NCBI GenBank assembly: GCA_028697015.1
Contig: JAQVFW010000003.1
Coordinates: 1 to 51,376, forward strand
DNA: 51,376 bases
Source of the DNA: Minisyncoccota bacterium
Lineage (GTDB): Bacteria > Patescibacteriota > Minisyncoccia > Minisyncoccales > GWA2-38-27
Reading direction: 5' to 3'
Made by a program: the position numbers and the translations under genes. Positions 1-35,602 of the stretch are shown piece by piece (the stretch's first letter is position 1; each line of letters opens with the position of its first letter). The notes beneath the pieces were generated by a model, which was not told the DNA's origin, searched no databases, and saw nothing but the letters and a program-made list of their open reading frames with translations.

Positions 1-124
1 GGATAAAAGCCTGAAAACCTTAGATAATTTGGCTTTTTAAAATATTCAAAGGCGTTTTTTTGTTTCAAGATTTATTAAAAATTTTGAAACTAAATGGCTG
101 TGGATAATTATGTGTTAACATAAA

Positions 125-358
125 GGGATTCCACGCTAAAATTCCCGAAGCGTTGCCTTTTTCAATTTCCGAAAGCATAAAATTAAAAACTTCTCGGCCC
201 GGTTCTTTGGCGGTCTTGCTTTCGTAAAATTCTTTGACAACAAAAAGATTGTTTTGTTTGGCAAACTCTCGCAATTCCGCTAGCTGGGCCTCAATGGACA
301 AAACCTGTCTTTCTTCGTCCTCGCTTGATTTTCGGCAGTAGATAAAATATTTAGTCAT
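125..358 (-). pseudogene. 5' fragment of a large serine recombinase (first ~78 codons of the resolvase catalytic domain); paralog of 34027..35574
   Basis: ORF 65..358 starts MTKYFIYCRKSSEDEERQVLSIEAQLAELREFAKQNNLF...GILAWNP, nearly identical to the N-terminus of the 515-aa recombinase. Nucleotide homology stops abruptly at about nt 125 (after gtggaatccc) and the rest of the ORF is unrelated read-through. Confidence 0.8.
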
Positions 359-373
359 AATTTTTAGAAGTTT

Positions 374-883
374 TTAATTTTGAAAAAGGCAACGCTTTAC
401 ACCGACAATTTGTAAAATTTTGTTTTGCGTTCCGCCAAAGGCGGAAGAAAACCATCGGCTCATTGCGGCAAAGCCGCAATACAAATTTTTAGATTTGTGA
501 ACCGCCGCCTTGCGGCGGGAAAATTGGCGATTGATTTCAAAAACCCTTGGCATTTCCTTGCGGAAATGCCCGCCGAAGCGAGGCGCGAAGCGCCGAGCGA
601 GGCAACTAATCAACTTTGGTGGTGTTTGTTGGAAAAAGTCAGAACTCATTTTGAACAAAATCCCGAATGATCGGCTCGCTTCGCTCGCCGGACGCTCGGG
701 CGGGGCGGGAAGGAAAGGGGGTTGGGGGGAAAGGAATTCCCGCCCCGCCCTCGCTTTTTCGCCGCCGCAATTTTTCGTATTTCGCTTTGCGAAATGCGCC
801 GCCAGAAAAGGAATTGTGTTTGCCCCACCCGCCCGTGCGCACACAATAATTTTTCTCCCCTGATTTTGCTTGCTAAGCATCAT
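374..883. repeat. GC-rich hairpin-dense non-coding region (leader 374..498, X' arm 499..622, Y' arm 623..~850); homolog of 33365..34014
   Basis: Strong compositional contrast with its flanks and many perfect short palindromes. It aligns in the same order with the region upstream of the intact recombinase. Several overlapping ORFs on both strands is typical of stop-poor GC-rich non-coding DNA. Confidence 0.8.
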
Positions 884-888
884 TTTAT

Positions 889-958
889 TTGGTAGTATAA
901 ATATACAGATAATAACCTAATATACTATAATACTACCAAAACTTTATTTATATGACAA
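889..958. promoter_or_regulatory. Divergent control region between XRE gene and GC-rich leader: 10-bp inverted repeat plus candidate promoters on both strands
   Basis: ttggtagtat (889..898) and atactaccaa (930..939) form an inverted repeat. TATAAT at 926..931 on the + strand lies ahead of the XRE ATG at 952. On the - strand, TTGTCA (953..958, overlapping the XRE start) is followed by a 17-nt spacer and TAGTAT (930..935), reading toward the recombinase fragment. Confidence 0.45.
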
Positions 959-1155
959 GTGGAAAAACAATAAGTGAAAATATCAAGAAATTGCGGGCTA
1001 AACTTGGATTAACTCAAGACGATTTGGCCAAGAAGGCGGATATTAAATACACCACGCTTATGAAGGTAGAGAGCGGAACAGTTAATAAGCCGAGCGTTCA
1101 AACTATGGCGAAAATCGCCAAAGCGTTGGGTGTTTCGATAGAAGATTTACTATGA
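952..1155 (+). CDS. XRE-family helix-turn-helix transcriptional regulator (67 aa)
   Basis: ENIKKLRAKLGLTQDDLAKKADIKYTTLMKVESG...IAKALGVSIEDLL is a classic Cro/C1 HTH pattern. It is homologous to the XRE at 33052..33249 and overlaps the next gene by 4 nt. Confidence 0.85.
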   Translation: MTSGKTISENIKKLRAKLGLTQDDLAKKADIKYTTLMKVESGTVNKPSVQTMAKIAKALGVSIEDLL

Positions 1156-1769
1156 AAGAAGATTTACAAAAAATCATCGAGCAATTTACAGATTATTTAT
1201 TGCCTATTTTGACACCATATGAGGCAGGACTTTATATTTTTCTTTTGCGTAATTCGTTTATTAAAAACGGCTCAAGAGAAATAAGAATTGGAAAACGAAC
1301 TATTGCTGACAATCTAGGTGCTTCTAGGGGAGAAAAAACGAATTACGCCCATGTTACAAAATTAGTAAATGGTCTAGAAGAAAAATCATGTATTAAAATT
1401 GGCGACACGACGCGAGAAGGGACATTATATTCAGTTTTTCTTCCAGAGGAAATCCCATCTGTAAAAGAGAAATTGTCTATTGTCGCTGATGCTACCGAAG
1501 AAGATTATTTTACTGACCCAGAAAAACGAAAAGAAATTTTCAAGAGAGATAAATATATTTGTCATTATTGCGGAGAAAAAGTAACGCCAGAAAATGCAAC
1601 TCTCGATCATCTCACACCTCAATGCAAGGGAGAAGGACATACAAAAGAAAATCTAAAAACAAGCTGTTTAGTTTGTAATAGTATTAAATCCGGTAAAACC
1701 TACGAAGAAGCCGCGCCCTATTTACTAAAAAGTATTCAGGAAAGAAAAGTCAGGAACAATAATCATTAA
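1152..1769 (+). CDS. HNH endonuclease-domain protein with N-terminal winged-helix-like region (205 aa)
   Basis: The C-terminal motif CHYCGEKV...LDHLTPQ...NLKTSCLVCNSIK matches the CxxC...DH...N...CxxN HNH signature. The N-terminal domain call is weak. Confidence 0.7.
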   Translation: MKEDLQKIIEQFTDYLLPILTPYEAGLYIFLLRNSFIKNGSREIRIGKRTIADNLGASRGEKTNYAHVTKLVNGLEEKSCIKIGDTTREGTLYSVFLPEEIPSVKEKLSIVADATEEDYFTDPEKRKEIFKRDKYICHYCGEKVTPENATLDHLTPQCKGEGHTKENLKTSCLVCNSIKSGKTYEEAAPYLLKSIQERKVRNNNH

Positions 1770-1773
1770 AATT

Positions 1774-2568
1774 ATGGCAAAGACAAAACAGCCACAACTT
1801 ATAGAAGCAAACCTATCTTATCAACAAATGGAAGCGGCTATCCCTAAAATCGAAAGGAGAATAGCCGATCTTGAAGGTTTTGATGTTGATTCCGTAAACG
1901 ACAGAAGCGATGCAAGAATTGATGCGCTTGAAAAATCTTTGGACGCGTTACTTGTTTCAATTTTTGGCGCTGGAACTGTTGAATATGAACGCTATCATTG
2001 GCAAGTTACACGATTAGACACAGCATCAATAAATATGATGCATCAAACTCCAATTCACGAGGTTCGGGAGGGTCTTCACCGTGGCATTTCCACAGCTAAG
2101 GCACATTTAGAAACAATTAAGAAAGGATTTCTTGAAGAATTGGGAGACGCTGGATTGACTTCTGCGGGAAAAACACTAAAAGCATACGAAGGTCTTGAAT
2201 TACACCCAGAAATTGAGCGCGCTGTTGGCAATTTATACAGAGACGGCCATTATGCAAACGCCGTTGAGGACGCAACCAAGGCACTCAACGCTTTGGTGCG
2301 AATGCGAAGCGGTGTAGAGGATAAGGACGGAAGCGCACTTATGGAGGCGGTATTTAGTCCGAAAAATCCTATTCTAAAATTTAATCAGTTAGCGGACACT
2401 TCAGATATTGATGAGCAAAAAGGATTTATGATGATGTTGTCAGGCGCTGTTGCTGGTTTGAGAAATCCGCGCGCCCATAAAATTATTAAAGACGACCCAG
2501 AAATGGCGTTGGAATTTATCGCTTATGTTAGCTTACTCGCCAAGCTGGTGGACAAAAGCACAAAATAA
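1774..2568 (+). CDS. TIGR02391/Ymh-like protein with HEPN-type Rx4H motif (264 aa)
   Basis: LSGAVAGLRNPRAHK, with RNPRAH encoded at 2461..2478, matches the Rx4-6H HEPN motif. The C-terminal region resembles the TIGR02391 family from memory. The N-terminal half is helical or coiled. Confidence 0.6.
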   Translation: MAKTKQPQLIEANLSYQQMEAAIPKIERRIADLEGFDVDSVNDRSDARIDALEKSLDALLVSIFGAGTVEYERYHWQVTRLDTASINMMHQTPIHEVREGLHRGISTAKAHLETIKKGFLEELGDAGLTSAGKTLKAYEGLELHPEIERAVGNLYRDGHYANAVEDATKALNALVRMRSGVEDKDGSALMEAVFSPKNPILKFNQLADTSDIDEQKGFMMMLSGAVAGLRNPRAHKIIKDDPEMALEFIAYVSLLAKLVDKSTK

Positions 2569-2570
2569 TT

Positions 2571-3116
2571 ATGTCTATAACAATTACCTATTTTGTCCAC
2601 GGAACGACAACAGATAATGAAAAAGAAATTTCATCCGGTTGGTTTGATGTTGAACTTTCCGATTTGGGCGTTAAACAATCAATCGAATTAAAAGATAAAA
2701 TCAAAGACAAAAAGTTTGATGTTGTGTTTTGTTCTGATTTAAAACGAGCTGTTAATTCAGCAAAACTGACTTTTGAGGGAGTTGTGCAAATTATCCCTGA
2801 CAAAAGATTGCGAGAGTGCAACTACGGAAAATACAACGCCCAGTCTTCGGCAATCGTGGAGCCAATGCAAGAAAACCACATTATTGAAAAATTTCCTGAA
2901 GGTGAAAGTTATGAAGATGTAAAAATGAGAATAGCTGATTTTCTTGAATTTTTAAAGAAAAATTATGACGGAAAATCAGTCGCGATAGTCGCACACAAAG
3001 CGCCACAACTTGCTTTAGATGTTTTATTGAAAAACAAAACTTGGGAACAAGCTTTTGCCGAAGATTGGCGAAAAACAAAATCGTGGAAACCGGGCTGGGA
3101 TTATGATATAAAATAA
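2571..3116 (+). CDS. Histidine phosphatase superfamily (phosphoglycerate-mutase-like) protein (181 aa)
   Basis: The N-terminus ITYFVHGTTTDNE matches the xRHGxTxxN signature but with V in place of R. Downstream SDLKRA and a later AHKAP are typical of branch-1 histidine phosphatases. Confidence 0.7.
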   Translation: MSITITYFVHGTTTDNEKEISSGWFDVELSDLGVKQSIELKDKIKDKKFDVVFCSDLKRAVNSAKLTFEGVVQIIPDKRLRECNYGKYNAQSSAIVEPMQENHIIEKFPEGESYEDVKMRIADFLEFLKKNYDGKSVAIVAHKAPQLALDVLLKNKTWEQAFAEDWRKTKSWKPGWDYDIK

Positions 3117-3117
3117 A

Positions 3118-3321
3118 GGCGGTGCGCCAACTTCGTTGGCACGAAAAATTGCGGCGGCGAAAAAAGAAGAGGCGAAAGCGAGGGCGGGCAAAAATTCCTT
3201 CCCCCCAACCCCCTTCCTTTTTGCGCGCCCGAGCGTTCAGTTTTTGTTCTGCCGCGCGAAGCGCGGCAATCAGTCAGGATTTTGTTCAAAATGGGTTCTG
3301 ACTTTTTCCAACAAACACCAC
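3118..3321. repeat. Distal inverted copy of the Y' arm (imperfect inverted repeat of 623..~803)
   Basis: The reverse complement begins tgtttgttggaaaaagtcagaac(c/t)cattttgaacaaaatcc, like 623 onward. It is GC-rich, starts 2 nt after the phosphatase stop, and its stems carry compensatory differences. Confidence 0.8.
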
Positions 3322-3476
3322 CAAAGTTAACTTATTGCCTTGTTTTAAATATTTATTCTTCTCTTTTTATAGCGGGAATTTTTAAAATTGAATTAAAAAT
3401 CAATTTCACTAATTTTTCCGTAATTTATTTTTTTTCAAAAATATGGTACGCTTATCTGAAAGAAAATAAATCTAAA

Positions 3477-3758
3477 ATGGATAAAGAACTTATAAACTTA
3501 AGAAAAGAAATTGATAAATGCGACAGGGAATTAATTAATATTTTATCTCTGCGGTTTAAAATTGGGAAAAGAATAGGGGAGTATAAGAGAAAAAATGAAA
3601 TGAATCGGGAAGATAAAAAAAGAGAGAAAGAAATGCTCTTAATAAGAAAAAAATGGGGAAATAAAAAAGGCCTTGATTCTTTTTTTATAGAAAGATTTTT
3701 TAATAATATTTTTAAAGAAATTAAAAAAAATCATAAAAAAATATTTGGAAAATTATAA
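3477..3758 (+). CDS. Chorismate mutase, AroQ-type (93 aa)
   Basis: MDKELINLRKEIDKCDRELINILSLRFKIGKRIGEYKRKN fits the AroQ helical pattern. The tracked ORF 3282..3758 begins inside the repeat, so I place the start at the internal ATG at 3477. Confidence 0.7.
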   Translation: MDKELINLRKEIDKCDRELINILSLRFKIGKRIGEYKRKNEMNREDKKREKEMLLIRKKWGNKKGLDSFFIERFFNNIFKEIKKNHKKIFGKL

Positions 3759-5509
3759 TGGAATTTTTAAAGGATTTAGAAATAATTTGGGATTATCTTA
3801 AAAATTATAAAAAGAGAGTTTTTTTCTTAGCTCTCCTTGCTGTTTTTTTTGCTGTTTTTGAGGGGCTTGTTCCATATATTTACGGAAAAATGGTAGATAT
3901 GGTTTTGCTCGATTCTCCTTTTTTCTTAATCCTTTTTCTGGTAGGAATATGGGCTTTAACGAGCATACTGTCAGAATTATCAAAAAGAATAGTATCCCTA
4001 AGAGGATCTTATCTATCCGTAGAAGCAATGGGAGATTTTGTTTTTAAAATATTTTCCTCTCTTATTTATCTGCCACTTTCGTTCCATAAAGAAAAAAACA
4101 CAGGAGATATTGTTTCCAGAATTACCAGAGCAGGAGACGCTCTTCAATTTATAATGGGAGATACTATTTTTTGGATAATTCCCCGTTTTTTAACGGTCAT
4201 AATAGGGCTTGCTATTCTTTTTTTCATTAACTGGCAGCTTTCTTTGGGCGCTCTTTTAATTTTTATTCTTTCCGGAACGATTTCCATTTTAAGAACTCCT
4301 CTTCTTATAGAAAATCAAAAATCTTTTAATAAGAAGATTGATGTTGCAGCCGGCATATTAAATGATTCTTTTATTAATATCCAAACGATTAAGTCGTCAG
4401 GAGCGGAATATTTTCAAAAAGAAAAAATAAAAAAAATATATGAAGAAGAAATAAATCCTTCATATAAAAAAGTGGTTTTGAGCTGGGAAAATACTGAATT
4501 TTTACAAGAACTTTTTTTCTCCCTCGGCTTTATGGGAATTTTTGCCTATGCCGTTTTTTTAACCGGAAAAGGGGATATATCACAAGGTACTTTAGTGATG
4601 TTTTTGGGTTATTTAAATTTAATAAGAATGCCTCTTAAGTTTCTACTTTGGCAATGGCTGTCTTTACAAAAATCCCTCGCAAGAATAAAAAGAGCAAGAG
4701 AGTTCTTTAAAATAACGCCTGAAAAATACAACAAAAAAGGAAAATTAATTAAAGAACTGAAAGGAAAGGTGGAATATAAAAATGTTTTCTTTTCTTATAG
4801 CGAAAGAAAAAATGTTCTCAAGAATATAAGTTTTTCAACTTTGCCAGGACAGAAAGTCGCTCTTGTTGGAGGAAGCGGGGAAGGAAAGACAACAATGGTT
4901 GATCTTCTCTCTTTATATTTTGTTCCCAAAAAAGGAAAAATTCTAATAGACGGCATTGATACAAAGCATCTTAACCTTAATTTTCTTAGAAAAATAATAG
5001 CATATGTTCCTCAAGATATTGTACTGTTTAACGACAGCATAAAAAACAATATTCTTTACGGAAATCCGGAAGCAACAAAAGAAGAGCTTTTAAGAGCGGC
5101 AAGAGCGGCTAATATATCACACTTTATTGAGACCCTCCCTAGAAAATATAATACAATTGTGGGGGAAAGAGGAATAAAGCTTTCTACAGGACAAAAGCAG
5201 CGCCTCGCAATTGCAAGGGCTATAATTCGAAACCCAAAAATTCTTATTTTAGACGAAGCAACCTCTTCTTTGGATGTAAAGTCCGAAAAACTAATTCAGG
5301 AAGCATTGGAAAACCTAATAAAGAACAAAACAACTTTTATAATTGCCCATCGCCTTAGCACGGTAAGAAAAGCGGATAAAATTCTGGTTATAGAGAAAGG
5401 AGAAATAGTTGAAGAAGGAACTCACGATGAACTTATAAAAAGAAAGGGAATGTACTATAATCTTTATCAGCTTCAGTTTACAAAGAAAAGGATTAAATTA
5501 AGATTATAA
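3758..5509 (+). CDS. ABC transporter, fused permease/ATP-binding protein (MsbA/exporter type, 583 aa)
   Basis: An N-terminal six-helix-type TMD is followed by Walker A GGSGEGKTT, the signature LSTGQKQR and Walker B ILILDEATS. Its start overlaps the upstream stop (ATAATG). Confidence 0.9.
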   Translation: MEFLKDLEIIWDYLKNYKKRVFFLALLAVFFAVFEGLVPYIYGKMVDMVLLDSPFFLILFLVGIWALTSILSELSKRIVSLRGSYLSVEAMGDFVFKIFSSLIYLPLSFHKEKNTGDIVSRITRAGDALQFIMGDTIFWIIPRFLTVIIGLAILFFINWQLSLGALLIFILSGTISILRTPLLIENQKSFNKKIDVAAGILNDSFINIQTIKSSGAEYFQKEKIKKIYEEEINPSYKKVVLSWENTEFLQELFFSLGFMGIFAYAVFLTGKGDISQGTLVMFLGYLNLIRMPLKFLLWQWLSLQKSLARIKRAREFFKITPEKYNKKGKLIKELKGKVEYKNVFFSYSERKNVLKNISFSTLPGQKVALVGGSGEGKTTMVDLLSLYFVPKKGKILIDGIDTKHLNLNFLRKIIAYVPQDIVLFNDSIKNNILYGNPEATKEELLRAARAANISHFIETLPRKYNTIVGERGIKLSTGQKQRLAIARAIIRNPKILILDEATSSLDVKSEKLIQEALENLIKNKTTFIIAHRLSTVRKADKILVIEKGEIVEEGTHDELIKRKGMYYNLYQLQFTKKRIKLRL

Positions 5510-7065: not shown

Positions 7066-10046
<2,981 letters not shown>

Positions 10047-10100
10047 TGGTTGGCTAATAATTTGTGGTTGTAATTTAAAAATTGTTTATTGTTATCATAA

Positions 10101-10204
10101 GGGGACTATACTGGTGTTGCTCCACCCGTTCCCATTCCGAACACGGAAGTGAAATACACCAAGGCCGATGGTAGTCCTTATGGGCAAGAGTAGGTAGTCC
10201 CCCT
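10101..10204 (+). rRNA. rrf: 5S ribosomal RNA
   Basis: Terminal helix ggggacta/tagtcccc plus the conserved ccgaacacggaagt and ggtagt blocks. At about 104 nt it is short. Confidence 0.85.
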
Positions 10205-10295
10205 ATAATGACCGTAAACTATTTTAAAAAACGGAATTAAAAACCCGTATTTTTTTTACCCTTTATTTTTCCCTTTATTTAAGTTATTATGCTAT

Positions 10296-24094: not shown

Positions 24095-24161
24095 AATATT
24101 TCAAGGATTATAGCGAATAACTTTCAGTTAGTCCATTTTAAGAAAAACTTCTCTGCATTTT

Positions 24162-24510
24162 GTGGTGTTTGTTGGACGAAATCCGAACCCATTTTGAGCA
24201 AAATCCAGAGGATTTTGCGGATTGAATCCCGCCCAGCGTTTCCGCCCGCCTCCGCTTCGCTTCGGCGAGCAAAACAGAAAAATTTTCTCTACATTTTTTA
24301 ATCGCCTGTCCCCCAAATTTTTTTTCAATTAAGGAAAAGAAAATTTTTCTGTTTTGCGTTCCTCTTGCGAGAGGAATTGCGGAAACGCCCCCACCCCATT
24401 GTCCGCCTTCGGCGGACTGGCAAGCGGGCAAAAATTCATTTTCCCCACACCCCTTTTTCTTTTTGCCCGCTTGCTTTCGGGATTCGGCTGATTTTTTTTG
24501 CGGACGGGCT
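24162..24510. repeat. Y arm, distal copy: 349-bp perfect inverted repeat of 33423..33771
   Basis: A hand reverse-complement comparison is identical throughout. The spurious ORFs 24138..24431 and 33256..34014 encode the same roughly 93-aa stretch, which confirms the identity. GC-rich and hairpin-dense. Confidence 0.9.
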
Positions 24511-24570
24511 ACAAATCAAAAGGGTGGAGGGTGGGTATAAATTAAATTGATCCTGTCTTTTATCTACTTT

Positions 24571-33296: not shown

Positions 33297-33422
33297 ATGC
33301 GTATCCCTTCCATTATTATGTTATACGAAAAAAATAAAAATGTCAACGAATTTCAAGGGAGCTCCTTCTTGTCGCCCGCGCACGGGTGCGGTGGGGCAAG
33401 GGCGACTATTGAATTTGATAAT

Positions 33423-33771
33423 AGCCCGTCCGCAAAAAAAATCAGCCGAATCCCGAAAGCAAGCGGGCAAAAAGAAAAAGGGGTGTGGGGAAAATGAATT
33501 TTTGCCCGCTTGCCAGTCCGCCGAAGGCGGACAATGGGGTGGGGGCGTTTCCGCAATTCCTCTCGCAAGAGGAACGCAAAACAGAAAAATTTTCTTTTCC
33601 TTAATTGAAAAAAAATTTGGGGGACAGGCGATTAAAAAATGTAGAGAAAATTTTTCTGTTTTGCTCGCCGAAGCGAAGCGGAGGCGGGCGGAAACGCTGG
33701 GCGGGATTCAATCCGCAAAATCCTCTGGATTTTGCTCAAAATGGGTTCGGATTTCGTCCAACAAACACCAC
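33423..33771. repeat. Y arm, recombinase-proximal copy (perfect inverted repeat of 24162..24510)
   Basis: See 24162..24510. In this copy Y-like homology to module 1 continues further, to about 33365. Confidence 0.9.
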
Positions 33772-33891
33772 CATATTGAATTAGTCGCCTCGCTCGGGGC
33801 TTCGCCCCTCGCTTCGGCAGGCAGTTTTGCGAGCAAATCAAAGGGCTTTTTGAAATCAATTTCCAGTCGTCCCGCCGCAAGGCGGCGGTTC
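33768..33891. repeat. X arm, inverted copy of the recombinase 3' end (124 bp, perfect inverted repeat of 35409..35532)
   Basis: The reverse complement reads gaaccgccgccttgcggcgggacgactgg...gcgactaattcaatatggtgg, identical to 35409..35532. Confidence 0.9.
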
Positions 33892-34026: not shown

Positions 34027-35574
34027 ATGATTAAATATTTCATCTATTGCCGTAAATCAAGCGAGGACGAAGAAAGGCAGGTTTTGAGCATTGAAGCCCA
34101 GCTCGCCGAGTTAAGAGAGTTTGCCAAGCAAAACAATCTTTTTATCGTCCGCGAATATACCGAGAGCAAAACCGCCAAGGAGCCGGGCCGAGAAATATTT
34201 AATCAAATGCTTTCGGAAATTGAAAAAGGAAACGCCGAGGGAATTTTAGCGTGGAATCCCGACAGATTGGCGAGAAACAGCGTTGACGGCGGAAAAATTA
34301 TCTACCTCGTTGATAACGAAAAAATCAGATCGCTAAAATTCCCTACTTTTTGGTTTGAGCCAACACCACAAGGAAAATTCATGTTGAGCGTCGCTTTCGG
34401 ACAAGCCAAATACTACACCGACAATTTAAGAGAAAACATTTTGCGAGGAATTAGGCAAAAAATACGCCGTGGCGAACTTTCGGCAAAAGCCCCGCTCGGA
34501 TATTTCAACGAGCCGCGACTTCGCACCATTGAACCCGATAAAAAGACATTTAACAAAGTGAAAGAAATTTTGCGGGTTTTTGCCACCGGAAATTACACCT
34601 TAACCAAAATTCAAGACAAAATGTTTTCTCTTGGCTTGGTTGGCGCGAGAAGCGGAAAGAAAATGCCCTTGTCGTCCGTTGAGCATATTTTGAAAAATCC
34701 GTTTTACTACGGGCATTTTCTTTACCGCGGCGAACTTCATCAGGGAAGCCATAAGCCAATGATTGCAAAGAAACTTTTTGACCAAATCCAGCAAGCGTTG
34801 AAAGACAACGGCAAGCCCCGCAAAAAGAGAAAAGAGAAAAAGGAATTTTTGTTTTTGAATTTTGCGAGGTGTGGCGAGTGCGGCTATTGCGTAACGGCGG
34901 ACAGAAAAATTAAAAAAAGCGGCAGAGAATATGTCTATTATTTCTGCACCCGAAAAAGCAAAATTCAAAAATGTGAGCAACGCCGCTTTTTGCGGGAAGA
35001 AGTTTTAGCCGAGCAAGTAAAAGAGAATTGTCAAAAAGTTTCTTTGCCCGATGTTTGGCGGGAAAGATATTTGAATAAATTGAAAGTGTGGGGAAACGAG
35101 AACCGCCAAACATCAGACCTTTTCGCTCAAAATCTCAAAAAAGAAATTTCCGCCATTAAAGCGAAGCTGGAACGGCTAACAGACGCATATTTAGCCGAAG
35201 CGTTGGAATTGGCGGAATTTCAGCAAACAAAAAACGCCCTAATGGCGGAAAAGAAAACAAAAGAGGAAAAATTATCTGATTTTGAACGAAAAGGAAATCA
35301 TTGGCTCGAACTCACCCGAAACTGGATTTTGGAAACCAATCAAGCCAAAAATCTCGCTTTGCAAGATAATTTTTCAGAAATGAAAAATTATCTCAAAAAA
35401 ATCGGCTCGAACCGCCGCCTTGCGGCGGGACGACTGGAAATTGATTTCAAAAAGCCCTTTGATTTGCTCGCAAAACTGCCTGCCGAAGCGAGGGGCGAAG
35501 CCCCGAGCGAGGCGACTAATTCAATATGGTGGACCGTGCCGGATTCGAACCGGCGACCTCTTCAATGCCATTGA
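34027..35574 (+). CDS. Large serine recombinase/integrase (515 aa)
   Basis: Catalytic N-terminus YCRKSSEDEERQVLSIEAQ, a recombinase domain, a Cys-rich zinc ribbon (CGECGYC...YYFCTRK...KCEQ) and a coiled-coil tail. The last roughly 55 codons run through the X repeat and into tRNA-Ala, so the true C-terminus is uncertain. Confidence 0.9.
   Translation: MIKYFIYCRKSSEDEERQVLSIEAQLAELREFAKQNNLFIVREYTESKTAKEPGREIFNQMLSEIEKGNAEGILAWNPDRLARNSVDGGKIIYLVDNEKIRSLKFPTFWFEPTPQGKFMLSVAFGQAKYYTDNLRENILRGIRQKIRRGELSAKAPLGYFNEPRLRTIEPDKKTFNKVKEILRVFATGNYTLTKIQDKMFSLGLVGARSGKKMPLSSVEHILKNPFYYGHFLYRGELHQGSHKPMIAKKLFDQIQQALKDNGKPRKKRKEKKEFLFLNFARCGECGYCVTADRKIKKSGREYVYYFCTRKSKIQKCEQRRFLREEVLAEQVKENCQKVSLPDVWRERYLNKLKVWGNENRQTSDLFAQNLKKEISAIKAKLERLTDAYLAEALELAEFQQTKNALMAEKKTKEEKLSDFERKGNHWLELTRNWILETNQAKNLALQDNFSEMKNYLKKIGSNRRLAAGRLEIDFKKPFDLLAKLPAEARGEAPSEATNSIWWTVPDSNRRPLQCH
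35409..35532. repeat. X arm, copy at the recombinase 3' end, abutting tRNA-Ala
   Basis: Perfect inverted repeat of 33768..33891. It ends in the GTGG core (35529..35532), which lies inside the tRNA 3' terminus. Confidence 0.9.
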
Positions 35575-35602
35575 AGCGCTCTACCAACTGAGCCAACGGC
35601 CC
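35527..35602 (-). tRNA. tRNA-Ala (anticodon GGC), CCA encoded
   Basis: Hand fold: acceptor GGGCCGT/ACGGTCC with the G3:U70 Ala identity pair, D arm GCTC/GAGC, anticodon stem CTTCA/TGAAG with loop ATGGCAT, T arm with GGTTCGAATCC, and a 3' ACCA. Length 76 nt. Confidence 0.9.

Follow-up and report, generated by a model that had tools for sequence, protein, structure and literature searches.

Organization of the cassette

The locus described here lies at the beginning of a 51,376-nucleotide (nt) stretch of DNA from a Minisyncoccota bacterium (GenBank assembly GCA_028697015.1, contig JAQVFW010000003.1). The whole stretch is called the window, and all window positions are counted on its forward strand. 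At 952-3116 it carries a cassette of four genes, which a first-pass annotation had taken for one candidate defence or abortive-infection system. A comparison of the genes, their neighbourhoods and the surrounding repeats makes it rather likely that they form a mosaic array of cargo and not a single system. The genes are the following.

952 to 1155, forward strand: XRE (Cro/CI-type) helix-turn-helix regulator, 67 amino acids (aa); HTH_3 E-value 1.8e-16, with PADLOC Control_protein (5.8e-12) among its best matches
1152 to 1769, forward strand: predicted winged-helix and HNH nuclease, 205 aa; Pfam HNH 5e-8 over aa 137-180; its start overlaps the XRE stop codon (ATGA)
1774 to 2568, forward strand: two-domain protein, 264 aa, with a helical N-terminal domain (N-domain; aa 1 to about 135) followed by a HEPN domain of the Ymh family (aa 142-258)
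2571 to 3116, forward strand: branch-1 histidine phosphatase, 181 aa; His_Phos_1 7.5e-29, 101 bits

The list of open reading frames (ORFs) and the repeat alignments agree with the layout described at first, that is, four co-directional and almost gapless genes between inverted repeats. The first two genes overlap by 4 nt (ATGA, 1152-1155), and they are followed by gaps of 4 nt and 2 nt. A scan of the forward strand within 952-3116 found no intrinsic terminator. Each of the assigned domains (XRE, HNH, Ymh/HEPN-type and histidine phosphatase) was backed by a profile search in Pfam, with TIGR02391 for Ymh. All four genes are under strong purifying selection, with ratios of nonsynonymous to synonymous substitution (dN/dS) of 0.01-0.07 against their nearest homologues (XRE 0.013, HNH 0.069, Ymh 0.03-0.06, phosphatase 0.03-0.05). 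The nearest relatives of the cargo genes carry Patescibacteria labels, and the GC content of the window is about 0.33, both of which fit a genome of the Patescibacteria (candidate phyla radiation).

Co-occurrence of the four genes

The census of gene neighbourhoods covered 140 loci, all of which were searched by tblastn with the four cargo proteins. The Ymh protein served as anchor for 54 species-representative genome loci and six contig look-ups (L001-L060), and the HNH protein for 80 metagenome loci. At none of the 140 loci did the phosphatase stand next to the HNH or Ymh anchor. A Ymh gene followed this HNH gene in two of the 80 HNH loci (L061 and L062), and this HNH family was found in none of the 60 Ymh-anchored loci. 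The trio of XRE, HNH and Ymh occurred nowhere among the 140 loci except in L061 and L062. Since these two are 90-91% identical at the nucleotide level to window 798-2573, they belong to the same element lineage as the window cassette and represent one evolutionary event. Outside this lineage, neither the trio nor all four genes came up at any of the 140 loci. Co-conservation, the yardstick that the first-pass annotation itself had set, therefore spoke against the proposal that the four genes are one system, with the phosphatase absent throughout and the trio limited to a single lineage.

The sister modules that share the frame of the cassette carry different cargo.

L061: XRE, HNH and Ymh, then a 107-aa ORF (sub-threshold P-II-like similarity) and a serine hydrolase in the place of the phosphatase
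L066 to L070: HNH, a 69-aa ORF and a ClpP-like SDH protease
L075: HNH and ASCH
L076: HNH and an Ogg-HhH-like protein (sub-threshold)
L089: a 155-aa ORF, HNH, a cytidine deaminase and a protein with sub-threshold HhH-GPD similarity
L141 to L144: XRE (48% identity), a 163-aa ORF, an isochorismatase and the phosphatase (92% identity)

In L062, XRE, HNH and Ymh are likewise followed by other genes where the phosphatase would be expected. Homology among the sister modules breaks off at approximately 1746-1776, at 2569-2573 and at 3108-3117. Because these breakpoints coincide with gene boundaries, whole genes are exchanged within a constant frame of repeats and XRE gene. No methyltransferase was found in the window module or in any sister module.

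Among the best 120 of the 7519 homologues of the phosphatase, which are 80-92% identical, the named ones are Patescibacteria. The closest relative (92% aa identity, among the same 120) stands in the sister module with the isochorismatase and has neither a HEPN nor an HNH partner. Other homologues lie directly after tRNA genes (L145, L147), beside a GIY-YIG gene, or between an unannotated 202-aa ORF and a PhdYeFM-type antitoxin gene with LemA, M48 peptidase, DnaG and RpoD nearby. On this neighbourhood evidence, the phosphatase was rejected as a partner of either the HNH or the Ymh protein, and it appears to be independent cargo or a housekeeping-type gene of a Patescibacteria-wide subfamily. 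Its assignment to the PGAM-type histidine phosphatases stands in terms of family, given the His_Phos_1 match and the invariant H10, R59, E82 and H142. The canonical R-H-G motif is replaced by V-H-G (aa 9-11, window 2595-2603), and V9 and G11 are as invariant in the subfamily as the catalytic residues.

Individual cargo proteins

The XRE protein was kept at 94-100% identity across sister modules with differing cargo and is the conserved first gene of the cargo slot. Directly upstream of it lies a candidate control region.

888 to 940, forward strand: candidate operator/promoter with an 11-nt perfect inverted repeat, TTTGGTAGTAT (888-898) and ATACTACCAAA (930-940)

The two 11-nt repeats enclose a promoter-like site, TATACA-18-TATAAT (902-931; promoter scan score 10/12), with its -10 box at 926-931. 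This block was kept in eight loci with the same XRE and differed in L141 and L089, where XRE identity falls to 46-48%. Such co-conservation is the pattern expected of a repressor and its operator, and we infer that XRE acts on the slot through the predicted operator in the manner of a C protein or a Cro-like regulator.

Control by a C protein, as in some restriction-modification (R-M) systems, is resembled in three respects. The nuclease gene begins within the end of a small XRE/Cro-type gene, the palindromic candidate operator overlaps the promoter, and a 66% identical XRE homologue heads an R-M-like operon on an IMG/VR contig (L154, 258-3194). The latter consists of a DNA methylase, an unannotated 287-aa ORF, which is possibly the restriction enzyme, and a second methylase, and this XRE class probably serves there as the controller protein. 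In contrast to these systems, no module holds a methyltransferase, and the same class of XRE also precedes genes for other than nucleases (L141, L089). Since it has no methylase, the cassette is not a C-controlled R-M system. The idea of XRE and HNH as a conserved toxin-antitoxin pair was weakened by the same non-nuclease contexts and by the lack of an XRE gene at most HNH homologues.

The HNH protein scored 33.4 bits against the Pfam cut-off of 21.4. Its residues C137, D152-H153, N167, C172, C175 and N176 are invariant in 35 homologues, and C140 is kept in at least 90% of them. By profile, catalytic D-H, Asn and CxxC...CxxC zinc site, the protein is a member of the HNH (beta-beta-alpha-Me) nucleases. 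Its HNH domain is closest to that of a solitary HNH enzyme, the Gme HNH nickase 4h9d (phmmer, 4.4e-9), which we compare here together with the type IV enzyme McrA. The AlphaFold2 (AF2) model (predicted local distance difference test, pLDDT, 74.5) gives the same picture, with a C-terminal domain that matches 4h9d (Foldseek probability 1.0) and an N-terminal winged helix like that of MarR/ORC (probability 0.99, weak E-values).

Members of this HNH family, 66-96% identical, come from organisms with the labels Patescibacteria, Dehalococcoidales/Chloroflexi, Omnitrophica and, in one case, a Pacearchaeota archaeon. Outside repeat-bounded modules its neighbours include GIY-YIG, a thioesterase-like ORF, IspG-like, MNT antitoxin, DUF3800, Y1 transposase and NucS_C genes, and nucleotide homology at these loci is confined to the gene and approximately 20 nt on either side. 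Because the neighbours are unrelated and the homology ends with the gene, the HNH gene has the appearance of an independently mobile nuclease. The protein may act as a restriction-like enzyme of the solitary kind (type IV or nickase), or else as a selfish enzyme of the homing type. The GC-rich repeat arms were also considered as an intron around the HNH ORF, which was rejected when the Rfam scan returned no group I or II intron.

The 264-aa protein matched the Ymh family well above threshold, both with PF09509 (4.9e-31, 107.5 bits against a cut-off of 25, aa 142-258) and with NCBIfam TIGR02391 (4.5e-24, 84.9 against 39.45). The first-pass annotation had pointed to RNPRAH at 2461-2478 as a HEPN Rx4-6H motif of the TIGR02391/Ymh type, and it was right on both counts: none of 36 homologues departs from the motif (R230-N-P-R-A-H235). 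An AF2 model of the protein consists of helices throughout (pLDDT 83.7). In the literature, Ymh is counted among the HEPN families; its Rx4-6H motif is conserved, and it occurs both as solitary genes and within R-M operons (PMC3710099). A GHKL-Ymh fusion had been noted earlier in the putative restriction enzyme R.NmeAIP (PMC2441816). The present protein resembles the solo genes and AbiJ-NTD fusions of the former account in its profile score, its invariant R-x4-H and its all-helical prediction, and the family resembles it in its restriction and defence neighbourhoods.

We know of no characterised member of this Ymh subfamily. In PADLOC, the 264-aa protein matches the defence profiles PD-Lambda-3_B (1.6e-15; aa 125-264 against profile positions 124-265 of 270, with the N-terminal half unaligned) and the pAgo-associated Aga_HEPN (4e-15). 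Together with the REase_II/PtuB matches of the HNH protein, they uphold the defence or abortive-infection character ascribed to these two genes.

Large contigs of Patescibacteria, Saccharibacteria, Acidobacteriota, Aminicenantales and Alphaproteobacteria carry homologues of the Ymh protein with 45-95% aa identity. A 93% match labelled Gammaproteobacteria lies on a 20-kb contig of a metagenome-assembled genome, which could be mis-binned. Nucleotide homology to the window covers the gene alone (from about 1741-1768 to about 2568-2577), and the gene behaves as a precise single-gene mobile unit. In a comparison of window 1741-2577 with L001, L007, L008 and L010-L012, the gene was 80-90% identical in quite different contexts; the homology began approximately 6-30 nt 5' of the start codon and ended within 9 nt of the stop codon. 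No repeats or recombination sites were visible around the unit in these copies.

In the Ymh-anchored loci, a nuclease or other effector is often encoded directly upstream on the same strand, at a gap of 4-100 nt. The examples comprise GmrSD_N+HNH (L007, L008; PADLOC REase_II, 5.7e-80), HNH_repeat+HNH (L010), HSDR_N (L036), DndB/DpdB-like (L001), patatin (L037) and DUF4145. Four of ten such upstream partners had no recognisable domain, and a PD-Lambda-3_A match was found in none of the ten. Further neighbours include serine and tyrosine recombinases, a LexA-methylase fusion, DUF4238, DUF4062 and a weak Abi_alpha match. A related solo TIGR02391 gene, whose HEPN half is 33% identical, is carried by the Klebsiella michiganensis IncF plasmid NZ_OP378644.1. 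There (region 3632-8426 of L150) it is found directly upstream of Hachiman (HamA and helicase) and near a DUF1778/GNAT toxin-antitoxin pair, an arrangement that recurs on many Klebsiella and Raoultella plasmids.

The N-domain of the Ymh protein (aa 1-135, window 1774-2178) matched 551 representative clusters, mostly of proteins of approximately 265 aa. In two proteins it is fused to a CAP12/Pycsar-type TIR domain instead of HEPN (P0463, P0474), and it is also repeated two to four times in 900-2020-aa proteins that have no Pfam match (P0372 and P0382 are among the carriers without HEPN). By this distribution it is a module in its own right. A helical domain of approximately 135 aa before the HEPN domain is also a likeness to the AbiJ-NTD1-Ymh fusions described by Anantharaman et al. 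(PMC3710099), and the N-domain may be their AbiJ-NTD1. A 1421-aa neighbour of Ymh in Aminicenantales was tested as a further carrier and lacks the domain. Since a sensor-like N-domain swapped between HEPN and TIR is a mark of one-protein abortive-infection effectors, autonomy of the Ymh protein seems more likely than dependence on the HNH protein.

Repeats, recombinase and island

The cassette is framed by the following features, to which a second, intact element copy further along the window is added.

65 to 358, reverse strand: truncated large serine recombinase gene (Pfam Resolvase, 1.9e-9), coding for the 78 N-terminal residues of the resolvase domain and then 19 unrelated residues
499 to 778, forward strand: left repeat region with a remnant of the recombinase 3' end (499-622), the core (615-666) and a GC-rich arm (667-778)
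615 to 666, forward strand: shared core of approximately 50 nt, TGGTGGTGTTTGTTGGA...CAAAATCC, which recurs elsewhere in the window
3117 to 3340, reverse strand: right repeat region with a GC-rich arm (3141-3248) and then the core (3289-3340), in opposite orientation to 600-778
34027 to 35574: intact recombinase, 515 aa, of the second, intact element copy

The two repeats align over 203 nt in a single blastn alignment (600-778 against 3141-3340; 77%, E-value 3e-39), far above chance. Within it, 600-692 and 3248-3340 form an inverted repeat of 93 nt at 86%, with further blocks at 710-738 against 3192-3220 and 755-778 against 3141-3164 (24 nt, 100%). Copies of the core lie at 3289-3340 (inverted), 24158-24209 and 33724-33773. 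The left repeat block was also found between recombinase and XRE gene in L066, L070, L076 and L141, and an intact recombinase adjoins it in L066, L070 and L141. In the sister modules, homology with the right arm always starts at window 3108-3117, whichever cargo precedes it; the right repeat is the outer edge of the module.

The truncated recombinase matches the intact one up to about residue 78 and then diverges. At L066, homology between its intact recombinase gene and the window begins only at window position 125. Two perfect inverted-repeat pairs, 148-165/380-397 (18 nt) and 179-194/366-381 (16 nt), tie the coding region of the truncated gene to the sequence just upstream and could be a regulatory hairpin or the scar of the truncating rearrangement.

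The intact recombinase gene shares its last 16 or so codons (35527-35574) with the 3' end of tRNA-Ala(ggc) (35527-35602). In related contigs, the 3' end of the recombinase gene overlaps tRNA-Lys(ctt) (L066 667-741, L070 648-722) or tRNA-Val(tac) (L076 3137-3212), and two elements stand in tandem at one tRNA in L076. From these overlaps with tRNA-Ala, tRNA-Lys or tRNA-Val, the recombinase family uses different tRNA genes as targets, and its elements are small tRNA-targeting islands driven by a large serine recombinase. A recombinase by a tRNA gene and att-like junctions, as expected of a tRNA-integrating island, were found at the intact copy, at L066/L070 and at L076. The cassette itself occupies the cargo slot of an island copy with a decayed recombinase, and the tRNA side of this copy lies outside the window or has been deleted. 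The earlier view of a mobile module edged by inverted repeats agrees with both the repeats and the recombinase context.

The unusual part of the locus is this platform, in which long inverted copies resembling the attachment site attP bracket the cargo. In the second element copy, 355-nt inverted repeats (24157-24511 and 33422-33776; 99%) enclose 8.9 kb of genes, among them a NUDIX-DegT aminotransferase fusion, an epimerase, a methyltransferase, a MafB19-like deaminase, an NDK fusion, an AP_endonuc_2 protein and an FAD oxidoreductase. The recombinase gene is in turn enclosed by perfect inverted repeats of 124 nt (33768-33891 and 35409-35532). What lies between recombinase and cargo there resembles attP in inverted orientation, made up of the recombinase 3' end and the core.

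Tycheposons (bioRxiv 10.1101/2020.12.28.424599) and Islander-type islands in tRNA genes share with this family a site-specific recombinase at one end by a tRNA gene and small, variable cargo that is swapped between related elements. The present elements differ in that a large serine recombinase gene overlaps the tRNA gene with its 3' end and no replication module is seen, and the long inverted attP-like copies around the cargo are not known as a feature of tycheposons. The invertible segments of Gin, Hin and Cin are also flanked by inverted repeats around a few kilobases, with a serine recombinase gene just outside one repeat. Here, in contrast, the recombinase is large (515 aa), the repeats measure 120-355 nt compared with approximately 26-34 bp, and the promoter lies inside the segment. 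A flipped cargo was found in none of seven loci, a small sample (both loci of the window, L029, L066/L070, L076, L078 and L141), and recombinase and cargo or XRE are divergent. This constant orientation argues against a flip switch, and an inversion switch was considered unlikely for the same reason and for the promoter inside the segment. A structured RNA or intron in the repeats was rejected as well, as an Rfam scan of 1-3800 by E-value gave only miRNA-like matches at chance level. Overall, each gene joins a known family as a new member, and the array is best filed as defence-type cargo of an integrative islet that targets tRNA genes, which is an element of a known kind.

When the flanking ABC-transporter protein was used to look for an empty site, one other contig came up. 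This contig (L149; GCA_028715565.1, JAQURO010000005.1) carries an identical ABC-transporter protein with the same downstream genes and begins at the right repeat, at about window 3136 as estimated from gene positions rather than from a DNA alignment. Its start is consistent with an assembly break in repeated DNA. Because the repeat seems to break short-read assemblies, repeat-bounded modules are probably under-represented on long contigs. An IMG/VR scan with the recombinase and XRE queries yielded only two and five loci, respectively, none of them with repeats. Elsewhere in the window, 23S and 5S rRNA genes lie at 7073-10206, and no 16S gene was found in the approximately 7 kb of window upstream, which points to an unlinked rRNA operon in the host genome, a common layout in bacteria of the candidate phyla radiation.

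Proposed function and alternative readings

In a mosaic cargo array, one XRE-gated promoter would drive the whole set, and its members would act independently. XRE would bind the 11-nt inverted repeat that overlaps the -10 box and thereby set downstream transcription, like the C protein of R-M systems. The winged-helix HNH protein would cut DNA with its beta-beta-alpha-Me site, guided by the winged helix, as a stand-alone enzyme. The Ymh protein would be a latent, self-contained HEPN RNase, with the N-domain sensing or regulating and the HEPN domain cutting RNA through R230/H235; an infection cue would release the RNase and lead to growth arrest. The phosphatase would be a common Patescibacterial enzyme, the distal cargo by chance and unrelated to the other genes.

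Several points weigh against this reading. With their tight spacing, the translational coupling of XRE and HNH and no internal terminator, the four genes are probably co-transcribed, which also fits a functional unit. The census was biased, since the sister modules were found through HNH or phosphatase anchors and not through repeats or XRE, and the frequency of HNH in the slot is therefore overestimated. Foldseek gave no match at E<=0.001 for the whole Ymh model against the Protein Data Bank (PDB), and a sequence search of the PDB with this protein found nothing significant; with no significant fold match for the model, the HEPN assignment derives from the profile and the motif. Finally, the adjacency of HNH and Ymh may be functional here and not accidental, because genes of the Ymh subfamily often follow a nuclease gene at a distance of 4-100 nt.

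This last point leads to the first alternative, in which HNH and Ymh form a two-gene abortive-infection module like PD-lambda-3 under XRE control. The DNase would attack invading DNA, or would be guarded, as in the case of EcoprrI and PrrC, and the HEPN RNase would be the second line. PD-lambda-3 is an abortive-infection system (PMC13190303), for which a review lists a PD-(D/E)XK nuclease in its domain table (PMC10952713). Several points speak for it: the 264-aa protein matches the B profile over its C-terminal half and is nearly equal to it in length (264 aa against 270 positions), a DNase-type gene lies directly upstream at a gap of only 4 nt, the gene upstream of Ymh is recurrently a co-directional nuclease or other effector, and PrrC-like roles have been proposed for Ymh proteins in R-M contexts by Anantharaman et al. 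(PMC3710099). However, the upstream nuclease of the cassette is a winged-helix HNH protein and not the PD-(D/E)XK-type PD-Lambda-3_A, for which no protein in the window had a match. As the A component is absent, the cassette is not a member of PD-lambda-3. In addition, the N-terminal half of its Ymh protein does not align with the B profile, and the HNH-Ymh pairing is not conserved: Ymh is missing downstream in 78 of 80 HNH loci, the HNH family is missing from all 60 Ymh loci, and the two other pairs (L061, L062) count as a single event. The partners upstream of Ymh, four of ten domainless and none a PD-Lambda-3_A, are too diverse for specific contact with one conserved Ymh, and the fusions of N-domain and TIR favour an autonomous sensor-effector. 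We regard this two-gene module as unlikely.

A somewhat slimmer chance is given to a broader version, in which HNH and Ymh are a PD-lambda-3-like pair, Ymh, as a highly conserved subfamily with wide transfer, is a portable, PrrC-like second-line RNase, and the platform is a dedicated device for cassette exchange. If the portable-RNase part were true, Ymh would plug in downstream of HNH, GmrSD-HNH, PD-(D/E)XK and DndB-like nucleases and fire when the nuclease is engaged or inhibited. If the PD-lambda-3-like pair were true, it would be the first such system in Patescibacteria.

Slimmer still is the chance that no defence role exists at all, the HNH protein being a selfish homing-type endonuclease in the slot, and Ymh and the phosphatase passengers kept for reasons other than phages. 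The high identity of the HNH family across such distant groups, its company of unrelated and even housekeeping genes, the narrow limits of its nucleotide homology, its nearest solved relative, which is a nicking HNH enzyme, and the largely metabolic-looking cargo of the sister modules would all fit. Yet the Ymh protein comes from a bona fide HEPN family, has kept its catalytic motif intact and matches defence profiles, both the HNH and the Ymh gene are under strong purifying selection, and the neighbourhoods of both are rich in restriction, toxin-antitoxin and abortive-infection genes. Moreover, the surroundings of the HNH gene showed no intron or intein and no obvious homing site.

Lastly, a four-gene system, in which XRE represses the DNase and the HEPN RNase while the phosphatase processes 2',3'-cyclic phosphate ends or otherwise serves the system, is hardly credible: the genes do share one direction, have almost no gaps and lack a predicted terminator between them, and metal-independent HEPN RNases do leave such ends, but the phosphatase is absent from all 140 anchored loci, L061 and L062 carry other genes in its place, and the proposed end-processing finds no support among homologues of which the closest (92%, among the best 120 of 7519) stands with an isochorismatase and no nuclease and others lie amid housekeeping genes or by tRNA genes.

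Implications

With the mosaic cargo array as the preferred reading, a tempting false positive is removed: four tightly packed, defence-like genes on a mobile module are not sufficient to call a system. To our knowledge, little is known of defence and gene exchange in Patescibacteria, for which culture-based screens are impossible. The locus offers three leads in this respect. The first is a conserved one-protein HEPN effector that travels between phyla as a lone gene and whose sensor-like N-domain is exchanged between HEPN and TIR effectors. The second is the recurrent adjacency of a restriction-type nuclease and a downstream Ymh gene, which may generalise PD-lambda-3. The third is a family of small serine-recombinase islands that shuffles single-gene cargo in ultra-small Patescibacteria.

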